Positions 30,001 through 36,000 of a stretch of DNA of 64,000 bases are shown piece by piece. The position numbers are program-made. Position 1 is the stretch's first letter; each line of letters starts with the position of its first letter. Origin of the DNA: a virus (taxonomy: Duplodnaviria; Heunggongvirae; Uroviricota; Caudoviricetes); IMG/VR virus record IMGVR_UViG_2859805564_000001. One strand, written 5' to 3'.

Positions 30001-33000
30001 TGGTTGAGAAGAAAACGGATATGGATAACCGTACTGAGATAGCAATCAGCTGGATCAACGGTCTGAAAAAAATCCGTTTCCCCGAGAAGAGCGGCAAGAT
30101 GCAGGATCACGGCGTGATTGCCGTTGATACCGCAGTGAAGCTCTGATTTTTCCTTTCCCCATGCCGGGTTTTCGCCCGGCTTTTTCTGGAGTCATTAATT
30201 ATGGCAAAGACTATTCTTGCCCCGTCACTGAGTGAACGGGTCTATACGGGCACGCACGGTAATGAGTCGGTGGCAGAAGGCGTATTTACGGTGAATGCTG
30301 CGGAAGCGGACAGTGTTATTCATCTTCTCTCACTGCCAGTTGGCATCCGTATCAACTCACTCCAGCTGGTTTCAACGGGCGGTCTGGGTACTGCAAGCGT
30401 CAGCATTAAGTCTGGTGAGCATGTTCTCATCGATAACAGCGAAGCTGTTTCTGCAAAATTTGCCAGATATGTGCCAGTGGAGCCGTACACCACACAGCGT
30501 GACGGAGAGCTGGTTACTGTCACCATTAAGACTGCCGCTGCAACCGGCACCCTGAATGTTCTGCTGCGTTATACCGTGGTGGGATACTGATTAAAACCTT
30601 CCGGCCCGCGTCATGCGGGCTTTTTATCCGGGGAATTTATATGAGCGAGAAAATTGCCGTTGTCTATATCGGCCCAAAACCCGTGAAAAAGGACACCATT
30701 ACCGGAAGTCGCACGCTGTTCCCACGTCTTGAGCCGGTGCATGTTGACAGCGCGATGGCCTGGCAACTGCTGGGGTTTCCGGATGTCTGGGTTCGTCATG
30801 AAGAGCTTGATGATGTTCTGAAAAAGCAACAACAGAATGAGCAGTTGCGGCAGGCACAGCAGGCGCAGGAAAGAGTGCTTGCTGCGCTGGCAGAAGCGGA
30901 GAACAGTTTTGTTGTTTCTGTTAACGGGCAGGAGGTGGATTTAAGTAAGCTCACCTCAGCACGGCTGGCGACGCTGTGTGAGGCAGAAGAGCTGGATATT
31001 CACAAAGACCCGAAAGAAACGGCTGAGGCATTCCGTATCCGGGTGCGTGAGGCATTTCGCCGTCGTGTTGCGGAGACTGAACAGCATGGCGGAACTGAGT
31101 GATTTTTTACCGTATGTCCGTCGTCATATCAGCGGTCCACTGAACATTATGATGACGGATGCTCTGTCAATGGCTGCCGTGGCATTCAGCCGCCAGTCGT
31201 TGGTGTGCCGTCGGGAGGTTACTGTTGTACCGGTGGCAGGAAAAGAAATCGTGCTTCCGTATGACAAAGATGATGAGGAGTGCGTTCATATCATCCGTAT
31301 CTCTGACGATAATCATGAGCTTTTTGTCGGTCGGGATGTGGATATCAGCTCCGGACGCTCCCTGCGATTTGCCTGTTCTCCCGGTGAGGTGAGCGTGCTT
31401 TATGCCGTCGCTCCGAAAGCCGGACGCAGCCAGATACCGGATGAACTCCTCACATGGCCCGAAGAAGTGGCTGCGGGGGCACTTGAGCGGTTGTTCATGC
31501 AGACTGGTGTTTCATGGTCGGACCCGTCACGCGCACAGTATTTTTCTGTGCAGTTTTCTGAGGGGATCCGTCGGGCATATCGTCATACACTGGCGACAAG
31601 CCCGTACTCTTCATACCGCAACCCTGTACGCAGGCAGAGGTTTTACTGATGACGACGATTACAGAAATCATCGGACGTGTGAATACACAACTGGTTGACC
31701 CGATGATGGTTCGCTGGCCCCTGCAGGAATTGTGCGATTATTACAATGATGCTGTGAGGGCAGTGATTCTGGCGAGACCGGATGCTGGCGCAAGCCTGGA
31801 AACAATCCGTTGTGTTCCAGGTGCACGTCAGGTTTTGCCTGATGGTGTAATACAACTTCTTGACGTGATATGCCTCAGTGACGGTAGCGCGGTCAGACCA
31901 TTATCCCGGGAGGTGCTGGATGCGCAGTATCCCGAGTGGCCCACAATGAAGGGCATTCCTGAATGTTTTATCAGCAACGACCTGTCCCCGCGCGTATTCT
32001 GGCTGTTTCCTGCCCCTGATAAAGAGATAAGTATTGATGCAGTGGTAAGCCGGATACCGGAGGCAGTGTATGTTCTGACGCAGGACGATGATACGCCAGT
32101 TCCACTGGAAGAGGCTTATGTTAACCCACTGGTGGACTGGATGTTGTTTCGTGCTTTCAGTAAGGATGCTGCCGGTGGCGCAGAATCGGGGCTGGCTGCG
32201 CAGCATTATCAGAGTTTTGTTGAGCAACTTGGGATCAAACAGGGGGCAGACAGTGCATTGTCTGCCCGTAAAAAAGTGTTTAACGGAGGTGGAGTGTGAG
32301 TGTTGTTGTTTCGGGGACGCTGAAATCTCCTGATGGTGAGGCGATATCAGGAGCAAATATTACCCTGACGGCGCTGACAGTTTCACCGGATGCGCTCAGC
32401 GGCACCAGTGCGTCAGCAGTGACCCGTGAAGGTGGATATTACGGAATGACGATGGATCCGGGGGAGTATGCGGTTTCTGTGACGGTGAAAGGGAAGACTG
32501 CTGTCTACGGACGTGTGCGTATTGAGGGGACTGAAAGTACGGTGACGCTCAATATGCTGTTACGCCGCAGTCTTGTTGAGGTTAGCATACCCGGAGAACT
32601 GCTGACAGATTTCCGGCAGATACAGAATAATGTGGCTGATGACCTTGCCAATATTCGTCGCCTGAATGAAGACACGGCGACAAAAAACACTCAGGCCACA
32701 CAGTCAAAAGAAAGTGCAGCAGCCAGTGCGAAGAGTGCATCTGACAGTGCAAAGACGGCAACCAGCAGGGCGGCTGAAGCCGGACAAAAAGCGACTGATG
32801 CCACTGAGGCTGCGACCCGTGCAGTCACAGCAGCGGGGAATGCAGAGGAAAGCTCGACCCGTGCCGGAGAGTCTGAAAAAGCCGCCGGAGCTGATGCAGA
32901 AAAAGCCAGACAGCATGCTGAAAAGGCCAGGCTGGCGCAGGAGAGCGCCGGAGAGATCCTTAAGCGGGCAGAGGCTGCCACTGTCAGTGCTGAAGAGGCC

Positions 33001-36000
33001 AGACGTATGGCTGAGAATGCACGGGGGCCCCGGGGGCCTCAGGGAGAAACTGGTCCGAAGGGGGATGTCGGTCCTAAAGGCGAAACAGGTCCAGTGGGCC
33101 CTCAAGGGCCCGCAGGGCCGAAAGGTGAGCGTGGTGACGTTGGTGCTCAGGGGGCTGTAGGGCCCGCTGGTCCGCGTGGTGAGAAGGGCGAACAGGGGGA
33201 GCGAGGACCGCAGGGAATACCAGGCCTGAAGGGGGATACCGGAGAGCGGGGGCCTAAAGGGGACCAGGGGGATATGGGGCCAAAAGGCGAGAAAGGTGAT
33301 CCGGGAGGTCCTGCAGGCCCGCAAGGTCCTAAAGGTGAACGAGGAGAAGCCGGACCACAGGGACCGATGGGAGCACGAGGTGAGCGTGGGGAGACTGGCC
33401 CCCGAGGTGAACCAGGTCCTGCAGGTCCGAGAGGCGAACGAGGAGAGACCGGACCTCAGGGACCTCGTGGAGAGCCAGGTCCGGCAGGCAGCGCTGCAAA
33501 TGTGGCTGATGCGACGACGGCACAGAAGGGAATTGTGCAGTTAAGCAGCGCAACGGACAGTGATGATGAAGCGAAGGCAGCCACCCCGAAAGCGGTGAAA
33601 GCGGCAATGGATGTGGCAAATGAAGCGAAAACAAAGGCAGAAGAGGCTGCAGCAGGAGGTGGTGTTCCCGGTCCGAAAGGAGATAAAGGGGACTCGGGGC
33701 CAGCAGGTCCGGCTGGGCCGAGGGGCGTTCAGGGACCGAAAGGTGATCCCGGCCCCCAGGGACCAAAGGGGGATACTGGCGCTGCTGGGGCAAAGGGTGA
33801 GAAAGGAGCCACCGGCGCAACCGGGCCACAGGGACCTAAAGGGGATACGGGAGCCGTAGGCCCGGCAGGACCGCAGGGACCTAAAGGGGATACGGGAGCC
33901 GCAGGCCCGGCAGGACCGCAGGGACCTAAAGGGGATACGGGAGCTGCAGGCCCGGCAGGCGCACAGGGACCAAAAGGTGACAAAGGCGATCCGGGGGTGG
34001 CTGGACCAGCAGGTCCGGCAGGTGCGCCGGGGCCGAAAGGCGATAAAGGTGATCCGGGAGTAGCAGGTCCAGCAGGTCCGGAAGGGCCGCAGGGACCGAA
34101 GGGAGACACTGGAGCCCCCGGGCAAGGAACAGAACTGCTTACTACTGCCAATACATGGACTCAGGCACAAACTTTTAATGGTGGTATTAATGGAAATTTG
34201 ACGGTAAACGGAAACGGATCATTTAACGATGTTCAGATCCGCTCGGATAAACGCAACAAGCGAAATCTGGTAAAACTGGATAATGCGTTAGATCGTCTGG
34301 AGGCACTTACTGGTTATCTTTACGAGATACAGTACTCTGCCGACGGTTGGCAAACGTCGGTTGGTTTAATTGCTCAGGATGCACAAAAAGCCTTGCCTGA
34401 ACTGGTAACTGAAGACGCAGACGTTATATCTGGTGAAAAACGTCTGCGTCTTAACTACAACGGCATAATTGCATTGTTAGTCGAAGGCTTTAAAACACTT
34501 CGTCATGAGATTAAAGAACTCCGGGAGAAGTAAACGACAGCTGTTGTAGTTTCTGGTTTCTACTGAATTTAAATTGTGGGGATGATACTCACCTCACGAA
34601 TTTCAGAAGGATATATGAAATGGGGATAACATCGGGATGGGTAGGTTCTTCGGCTAAGAGCGAAACAGGTGAGCAATGGATGGGGGCTGCTGGCACTAAA
34701 CTAGGATTGGATAAACCTTTTATGATGAGTCAAATGGTGGGGCGAGCTATGGGTTGTAAAATAGAAACCGCTTACTATAAATGGAACTCTTCGGATCAAG
34801 TTGAAAACTGGGGGGCGGTTGGAGCTGATTGGCCATTAGAAGAAAAAAGCAAAGGGACAATTACAAACGCTGAAAACTGTGGTTCTGGGAGACTGGTGGG
34901 GGCTGTCGTTACACTTTCTCACTTTTTGACGAACTCTACACCGACAGCTGCTGTTTATTTATCCGGTGGTAAAGCAGGTAACATCACCGTAAACGTAGGT
35001 GGTGCTACACAAACCATGATTTATCAGGGCGTTGTTAGTGGGTTCCAGTATTACTGGTCAGGTTCTGTTAGTTCCGCTTTCGTGGAGGCAATGAAAAAGA
35101 CGGGAGTAACCCAGGATCTAAAAATTAGTTAAATGGTAAATGAATAATTTTAAAAACTTCACGTTCTACATACCGGAGACGCCGGATATATAGGATATTG
35201 TTTTAAGTTGCCAGAGAAATTTTTCCGGACGGATGCTGATAATAATGATGTAATTTTTCAAGATTTCTGGAAATCTGTATTCTGCACAGGCGCAATTGTA
35301 TGCCGCCTTTAAAACTTCAATTCAGTGACTCACCTGCCATTCAAATTTTCGGATACCAGACAACCATGCCTTATATCGATATAACAACTATGCGCGGGAT
35401 GATGCCAGGCGTTATTGCATCTATGCTGCCAGATCATTCTGCTGTACTGGCAGAAAACTGTCATTTTCGCTATGGAGTGATCACGCCTGAACACCAGATG
35501 TCAGAGGCTGAGAAAACATTCGCGATTAAGCCGAAAACCATTTTTCATTACCGTGACGATTTCTGGTTTGCATGGACGGATGTGGTGGATGTGATCCGCA
35601 GTCCGATCGCTCAGGACCCCCACGGGCGTATTTACTACACTGACGGGCGTTTTCCTAAAGTGACGGATGCAACCATTGCCACAAAAGGGGACGGGAATCA
35701 TCCGGCATCATCGTATCGTCTGGGGATCCCCGCGCCGACGACAGCACCTGTCTGTACTGTTCAGCAGGGCGGTGATGTTTCTGACGATAACCCGAATGAT
35801 GACGAAACCCGGTTTTATACGGAAACCTTTGTCTCAGATTATGGTGAAGAAGGTCCGCCAGGTCCGGCGTCTCTGGAGGTAACACTCCGTACTCCGGGGA
35901 CTGCGGTACAACTGACGCTGGCTCCGGTGCCATTGCAGAATGCCAATATTAAACGTCGCCGGATTTATCGCTCTGCATCAGGTGGAGGAGAAGCGGATTT

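Follow-up and report, generated by a model that had tools for sequence, protein, structure and literature searches.

A collagen-like lateral tail fibre in an Ss-VASD-type Stx1a prophage, with a predicted self-cleaving chaperone, a gp38-like adhesin and a shaft that varies by whole 45-bp units

The subject of this analysis is a collagen-like tail fibre gene in a 64,000-nucleotide (nt) stretch of viral DNA with host flank (IMG/VR record IMGVR_UViG_2859805564_000001), hereafter called the window. We propose, with a probability of roughly 0.78, that this gene encodes a lateral fibre whose C-terminal Peptidase_S74 (S74) domain cleaves itself off, whose tip is capped by a gp38-like adhesin encoded immediately downstream, and whose shaft differs in length between isolates by the gain or loss of whole 45-bp units. 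A scan for open reading frames (ORFs) placed the gene at 32296-34533 on the plus strand, with a GTG start and 745 amino acids (aa), exactly the limits given in a preliminary description of this DNA. The features of the locus are as follows.

31649..32299, plus strand: tail adaptor protein (SU10_adaptor), forming the ring that holds the fibre N-termini (PF24175, E 1.9e-31)
32296..34533, plus strand: lateral (side) tail fibre gene, 745 aa (ORF, identity to Ss-VASD gp61, Pfam, PHROG)
32296..32595, plus strand: N-terminal virion-attachment domain (PfN / CarboxypepD_reg-like), about aa 1-100 (PF13620, PF08400, near-identity to phi24B)
32596..33024, plus strand: Ala/Glu/Lys-rich trimeric coiled-coil rod (PCoil), about aa 101-243 (from sequence, limits approximate)
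33025..33495, plus strand: collagen domain 1, aa 244-400, 52 Gly-X-Y triplets with one GDPGGPAG interruption
33496..33660, plus strand: Phage_fiber_2 repeat and short non-collagen linker, aa 401-455 (PF03406 at aa 407-448, E 3.7e-17)
33661..34128, plus strand: collagen domain 2, aa 456-611, 52 unbroken Gly-X-Y triplets
33826..33960, plus strand: three near-identical 45-bp units of 15 aa each, ending [V/A]GPAG, the copy-number-variable array (TRF, unit register)
33946..34108, plus strand: second, more diverged 63-bp (21-aa) repeat, 2.6 copies, 79% matches (TRF)
34129..34242, plus strand: short non-collagen tip, aa 612-649, predicted mature C-terminus and adhesin docking surface (alignment to S16 gp37)
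34243..34530, plus strand: Peptidase_S74 intramolecular chaperone, aa 650-745, with Ser650 and Lys655, predicted to be released between R649 and S650 (PF13884, alignments)
34620..35132, plus strand: Gp38_N-domain adhesin, 170 aa, predicted fibre-tip cap and receptor binder (PF21721, phrog_1121, 6F45_D)

The fibre gene shows 100% identity over its 2238 nt to the gene for gp61 of Shigella phage Ss-VASD (YP_009190568.1, 'tail fiber protein'), a wrbA-integrating Stx1a (Shiga toxin) phage that was sequenced from purified particles and assembled from MiSeq reads. The correspondence extends well beyond the gene, as window positions 1-52530 match Ss-VASD 10321-62851 with a single 1-nt gap and zero mismatches. 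This part of the window is an integrated Ss-VASD-type Stx1a prophage, followed by host flank, and the fibre belongs to this short-tailed Stx1a-converting prophage of the Sepvirinae.

That the gene encodes a virion tail fibre, as the preliminary description had it, is well founded because near-identical proteins have been studied directly. Over residues 1-475 the window protein hardly differs from the 645-aa fibre protein of phage phi24B, for which a cryo-electron microscopy preprint (2026) describes six lateral fibres, each a trimer, with an N-terminal domain that binds the tail adaptor ring, a coiled coil from about residue 100 and then a long flexible collagen-like shaft. ORF67 of Sp5, closely homologous to L0121 of 933W, cannot be lost without loss of infectivity, and immuno-gold electron microscopy places the protein at the tail. 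The adaptor gene upstream of the window fibre encodes a protein 99% identical to the one encoded directly upstream of the phi24B fibre gene, which was taken as the adaptor gp62 of the preprint. By transfer from the near-identical phi24B protein, the N-terminal domain of the window fibre would sit on the junction of adaptor and nozzle as one of six trimers.

Domain searches agree with this assignment, since PHROG tail-fibre families match along the whole protein, CarboxypepD_reg (PF13620) and phage_tail_N (PF08400) are found at the N-terminus, and Pfam Collagen is found in six stretches (E 1.8e-48). The coiled-coil rod may be compared with the PCoil domain of 109 aa in EPclB proteins (PMC3368898). 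Recombinant EPclA and EPclB homologues assemble in vitro into trimers with true collagen triple helices, as judged by circular dichroism and electron microscopy, and by transfer from such proteins the window shaft is a coiled coil followed by two collagen domains, predicted to be triple-helical. Phages of the 933W and Sakai type agree with the window gene at 99% over nt 1-1440 and depart from it thereafter, which places the switch point between fibre types inside collagen domain 2.

The collagen-like nature of the shaft was confirmed, with a long Gly-X-Y run as in the collagen repeat class (PF01391), while the earlier count of about 360 Gly-X-Y residues was too high: 104 triplets, or 312 residues, were found in runs at aa 244-339, 341-400 and 456-611 (32, 20 and 52 triplets). 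Proline occupies the X position in 47 of the 104 triplets, and Lys, Gln, Arg, Ala and Thr prevail at Y. The GDPGGPAG break corresponds to the conserved GxPGGPxG interruption of collagen 1 in the EPcl class (Ghosh et al. 2012, PMC3368898). The 45-bp tandem repeat is likewise real, although not over the whole of 33821-34085 as first described, a region that holds three units at 33826-33960 and, beyond them, the separate 63-bp repeat. TRF reported the 45-bp repeat at 33829-33977 (3.3 copies, 94% matches); pairwise identity of the units is 91-96% when they are compared in unit register and rises to as much as 98% when the register is shifted, and a supposed fourth unit is just 64% identical. Other in-register 45-nt windows of the collagen-coding DNA have a mean identity of 50% +/- 8% (99th percentile 73%), so that the units far exceed this background and are best regarded as recent duplications rather than a reflection of collagen periodicity.

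The preliminary description had suggested that the number of units might vary between isolates. When the relatives were compared an invariant number was not observed, and alleles with three, two and one units were found in complete bacterial genomes and in phage genomes. The 3' 1038 nt of the fibre gene was used as query against 5,426 complete E. coli genomes, and the matching places fell into the following length classes.

1038 nt: 7 genomes, 3 units, as in the window
993 nt: 17 genomes, 2 units, with O104:H4 strains of the 2011 outbreak among them
948 nt: 4 genomes, 1 unit
1392 nt: 7 genomes, larger variant, partial coverage
894 nt: 3 genomes, larger variant, partial coverage

Among phage records, three units are present in Ss-VASD, P13803, P8983, P14437 and phi191, and two in all six O104:H4 outbreak phages. 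Alignments of the alleles show the clean loss of one or two whole units, with differences of exactly 45 or 90 bp. In a MAFFT alignment of seven genes the E. coli alleles with 3, 2 and 1 units show no other difference, apart from three single-nucleotide polymorphisms that are all private to the window lineage; the 9-11 mismatches that BLAST had reported between alleles proved to be artefacts of register shifts inside the repeat. With such an identical background, the number of units must have changed faster than point substitutions built up.

Short-read assemblies can collapse tandem repeats, and Ss-VASD itself was assembled in this way, so it may be asked whether the length differences are artefacts of repeat collapse or expansion and no real polymorphism exists. 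The whole array, however, is just some 135-150 bp long, and each of the lengths is seen repeatedly, in several complete genomes and phage records that are independent of one another. The six O104:H4 outbreak phage records and the listed genomes of outbreak strains all show the 2-unit allele. In addition, the 2- and 1-unit alleles occur together within one sequencing project (the OkiPb series), which argues against an artefact of the technology. We regard an origin of all these differences in assembly as extremely improbable.

We propose instead that units are gained or lost whole, by replication slippage or unequal recombination. The textbook rise of a collagen helix is 0.286 nm per residue, so that each step would alter the shaft by 15 residues or about 4.3 nm, leaving the reading frame, the tip and the adhesin untouched. 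A phase-variable contingency locus, acting as an ON/OFF switch, was considered and rejected because the 45-bp unit keeps all alleles in frame and at full length; the constant unit number across the listed O104:H4 outbreak genomes and phage records does not fit such a locus either. The polymorphism might also be adaptive rather than neutral, with shaft length setting the reach of the adhesin through O-antigen or capsule of various E. coli and Shigella hosts, and the gp38-like adhesin, which is small and structurally unplaced, being the true tropism determinant of O104:H4-type and Shigella Stx phages. This idea draws on the three length alleles of an otherwise identical gene and on unit gain and loss outpacing point mutation, and we consider it doubtful.

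Larger rearrangements affect the same region. In Shigella phage 75/02 Stx (NC_029120; locus L009, 1501-2985) the fibre has 494 aa as a result of a 753-nt in-frame deletion, which fuses collagen 1 with collagen 2 over a stretch of 32 nt that the two share and removes the Phage_fiber_2 linker and most of the shaft; the tip, the chaperone and an identical adhesin are retained. An 863-aa allele from E. coli O104:H4 FDAARGOS_348 (locus L005, 1301-3892), of the same length as that of phage P13771, carries an extra segment of about 180 aa consisting of a globular non-collagen region followed by a second, duplicated Phage_fiber_2 repeat, and its collagen 2 is shorter. The O10:H32 allele contains three copies of the core of the 63-bp unit. 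Altogether, alleles that share the same tip have anywhere from 39 to 104 collagen triplets. Both the larger in-frame deletions and the exchange of C-terminal cassettes would arise by recombination between other collagen segments that resemble one another.

The fibre's C-terminal portion is of a different kind. Pfam PF13884 (Peptidase_S74) matches aa 650-705 with 46.0 bits against a cut-off of 22, over the full length of the profile, and at the N-terminal edge of the domain Ser650 and Lys655, five residues apart in S650-D-K-R-N-K655, form the S-D-x-R-x-K catalytic pair. The best match of the fibre C-terminus in the PDB is 6F45_A, gp37 of phage S16 (E 3.5e-13), and the PHROG family 'long tail fiber protein distal subunit' matches aa 614-745. 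In S16 gp37 the last 113 residues are an intramolecular chaperone that is autocleaved at DLNVS^SDRRIKK, baring the docking surface for gp38, and in the related fPS phages of Yersinia the cleavage motif is DVYIR^SDGRLKI. The window site, DVQIR^SDKRNK, aligns with SSDRRIKK of S16 gp37. The self-cleaving chaperone domain of the preliminary description is therefore borne out as an S74 domain with its Ser-Lys pair in place, cleavage itself being predicted. In three other proteins (P0024, P0026 and P0028) the same tip and chaperone, with the site ^SDKRNKRN, are found on non-collagen shafts that have a Gp34_trimer-like domain and repeats of the type 'GNQNTSGNAA[TS]ATKL', and the module thus behaves as a mobile C-terminal cassette.

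We propose that the S74 domain (aa 650-745) serves as an intramolecular chaperone that would nucleate trimerisation from the C-terminus, and then would cut itself off between Arg649 and Ser650 by means of Ser650 and Lys655, exposing a small tip that ends in ...NDVQIR. Uncleaved S74 domains do exist in engineered mutants of other fibres, and the domain could accordingly be a non-catalytic relic that aids trimerisation and stays attached, with no adhesin docking. Against this, Ser650, Lys655 and the SDxRxK motif are intact and are conserved in the relatives of the module, except for one chimeric-looking sequence without the motif, and a gene for a Gp38_N adhesin lies directly behind the fibre gene, as in systems where docking requires cleavage. 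A relic of this kind seems quite improbable to us.

The adhesin gene was overlooked in the preliminary description, and it is this gene that probably carries receptor specificity. Its product matches Pfam PF21721 (Gp38_N) at aa 1-40 with 72.3 bits against a cut-off of 25 and belongs to phrog_1121 'tail fiber adhesin'; its RefSeq name is 'receptor recognizing protein Gp38'. The best PDB match is 6F45_D, the N-terminus of S16 gp38 (E 0.0023), from the same complex as the match of the fibre. In each of the seven relatives with loci long enough to include the downstream gene, the adhesin gene comes after the fibre gene, and the protein is 100% identical across the alleles except that of O10:H32. 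Its N-terminal 41 residues are nearly invariant and the remainder diverges, as would suit a protein in which a conserved module for docking is linked to a variable one for receptor binding.

The family is small, with 53 clusters at E <= 1e-3 in a set of 1.8 billion representatives, and in most of these clusters the similarity is confined to the first 45 or so residues. AlphaFold gave a beta-sandwich for aa 45-170 and low confidence over the N-terminal 42 residues, and by predicted structure the protein comes closest to short gp38-like proteins from T4-like phages of Proteus (TM about 0.54). No match to PF05268 (the GP38 polyglycine sandwich) and no glycine-rich motifs were found in the adhesin; one distant relative, P0013, combines Gp38_N with PF05268. 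The literature on the receptor and host range of P13374-type fibres yielded nothing specific, and the BASEL collection paper contained no relevant statements on gp38-like adhesins or Sepvirinae.

As in the long tail fibres of S16 and T2, one copy of the 170-aa Gp38_N protein would dock on the exposed fibre tip, and the adhesin, rather than the fibre, would bind the host receptor. T4 gp38, on the other hand, is a folding factor that is not incorporated in the virion, and if the window protein were likewise an assembly chaperone only, host contact would fall to the fibre tip or the collagen shaft. The lack of one anchoring tryptophan (see below) and the low AlphaFold confidence over the N-terminal 42 residues could be read in this sense. 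T4 gp38 is, however, unrelated in sequence to S16-type gp38, whereas the window protein matches the S16-type attachment domain (Gp38_N at 72 bits; 6F45_D), and low confidence is expected for a docking domain that is modelled without its partner. Moreover, the fibre already has its own intramolecular chaperone, and the approximately 38 non-collagen residues left after cleavage are too few for a typical receptor-binding domain. A chaperone-only role is in our view unlikely.

Several observations weigh against the proposed scheme of cleavage, adhesin docking and whole-unit shaft variation. For the window protein, both cleavage and the presence of the gp38-like protein in virions are deduced from homology, and the entire sequence of chaperone action, cleavage and adhesin capping is likewise suggested by homologous systems. 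An AlphaFold2 monomer of tip and chaperone (aa 600-745, from an alignment of 11 sequences) was unusable, with a mean pLDDT of 49 and a pTM of 0.27, as one would anticipate where the chains of an obligate trimer are intertwined. Of the three tryptophans by which S16 gp38 is anchored, two are kept and invariant (W7 and W20); at the third position, PFW in S16, the family has Met (PFM). Two units are present in all listed O104:H4 genomes of the 2011 outbreak and in the six outbreak phage records, so the array is not hypervariable on the time scale of an outbreak. Finally, the number of units is without a known phenotype.

The opposite strand of the fibre gene contains long ORFs that the preliminary description had dismissed as artefacts of the repeats.

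32704..34170, minus strand: four overlapping antisense ORFs of 206, 166, 209 and 140 aa (ORF scan)

This judgement holds, as the antisense ORFs are compositional artefacts of GC-rich, periodic collagen-coding DNA. None of the antisense and off-frame ORFs in the fibre gene has a Pfam match. Antisense frame 0 has zero stops across both collagen regions because a stop there would require TTA, CTA or TCA on the sense strand, and collagen employs none of these codons. The GC content is 67-68% in the collagen DNA versus 49.5% in the window, and each of the three antisense frames has stretches without stops, the limits of which shift from allele to allele, as composition alone would give. In AP005153 (locus L002, ORFs b7-b10) and HM208303 (locus L014, vb_24B_37c) antisense or off-frame ORFs are annotated as coding sequences for hypothetical proteins, although they too are artefacts of composition.

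Some further observations concern the prophage as a whole. The sole difference from Ss-VASD across 52.5 kb is a G-run at about 36707, with six G in the window versus seven in Ss-VASD. The shorter run cuts an ORF (window 35300-36991) at 36730, giving 476 aa instead of 563 aa and removing its overlap with the gene that comes next, at 36987. Judged from its position and length, the ORF corresponds to the phi24B nozzle gene (gp57) and probably also to Sp5 ORF70, which is essential for tail formation. The six-G run reflects either an error in sequencing the homopolymer or a true frameshift, and in the latter case the prophage would be tail-defective. On the minus strand, the ORFs at 6151-8570 adjoin the repressor region and correspond by coordinate offset to gp28 and gp29 of Ss-VASD, whose annotations are restriction endonuclease and DNA methyltransferase, which suggests a restriction-modification pair borne by the prophage. 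The right end of the prophage and the flank contain the following features.

52454-52530: att repeat of 77 bp, right end of the prophage
52531-64000: host flank beyond the right end of the prophage
53084-54357: IS2, in the host flank, which also contains a recombinase fragment
55737-58176, minus strand: IS21 element, in the host flank
59126-61306: tape-measure gene of another prophage remnant, in the host flank

This IS-rich content fits a Shigella-like chromosome.

The phage lineage to which the fibre and adhesin belong carried the genes for Shiga toxin into Shigella sonnei and enteroaggregative E. coli O104:H4, and the two proteins are thus relevant to the question of which bacteria are able to acquire the toxin. 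Among known systems the closest is Ss-VASD gp61 itself, which is the same gene, the window differing in that it is an integrated prophage with host flank. The fibre of P13374 and phi191 (ORF65, from O104:H4 Stx2a phages) has the same architecture, tip and S74 domain and an identical downstream adhesin; the P13374/O104:H4 outbreak allele has two units and 730 aa, whereas phi191 and the window have three. This 'EAHEC-specific' fibre was described by Grande et al. 2014 (PMC4122784), who named its collagen repeats, its Peptidase_S74 domain and the adjacent tail fibre adhesin gene. Ghosh et al. 2012 (PMC3368898) defined the EPcl classes and reported that collagen lengths vary in multiples of three residues.

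Compared with the EPclB proteins (933W L0121, Sp5 ORF67 and the phi24B fibre), the window fibre is near-identical over aa 1-475, that is through collagen 1, the Phage_fiber_2 (Pf2) repeat and the start of collagen 2, and it has the PfN and PCoil domains, the two Col domains split by Pf2 and the GxPGGPxG break of this class. EPclB proteins, however, end in Phage_fiber_C (PfC) followed by a small PfC-only ORF, whereas the window fibre ends in the tip and S74 domain followed by the Gp38_N adhesin. PF06820 (Phage_fiber_C) gave no match in the window fibre, while the 933W-type protein has it at aa 571-634. Strict membership of EPclB was consequently rejected, and the protein is better described as an EPclB-like body with another C-terminal cassette.

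The tip of the S16 and T2 long tail fibres (a gp37 trimer with one gp38; PDB 6F45) has a homologous chaperone and cleavage motif and a homologous adhesin attachment domain, and the window locus shares with it both a gp37-homologous chaperone at the fibre end and a Gp38_N gene directly downstream. S16, however, is a myovirus with a beta-helical shaft, in contrast to the collagen shaft of the window fibre, and its gp38 has a polyglycine-sandwich receptor domain and three anchoring tryptophans, compared with the predicted beta-sandwich and two tryptophans of the 170-aa window adhesin. Judged from these similarities, the window fibre may work like the tip-adhesin system of S16 and T2, with a receptor domain other than the polyglycine type. 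The chaperone of endosialidase K1F is characterized by the same family-defining Peptidase_S74 domain, the Ser-Lys pair and the C-terminal position in a trimeric fibre, but it folds the triple beta-helix of a tailspike enzyme, whereas the window S74 domain follows a collagen triple helix. A purely functional analogy for the way in which the 45-bp units would act is offered by BclA of Bacillus anthracis, an unrelated spore-surface protein, which is collagen-like and in which the number of Gly-X-Y triplets differs between strains and sets the length of the filaments.

In relation to these systems, the gene itself had already been annotated, and the combination of collagen, S74 domain and adhesin as well as the variable collagen length had already been described. 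The present analysis adds the series of 3-, 2- and 1-unit alleles on an identical background, a corrected repeat map and an explicit model of cleavage and docking.

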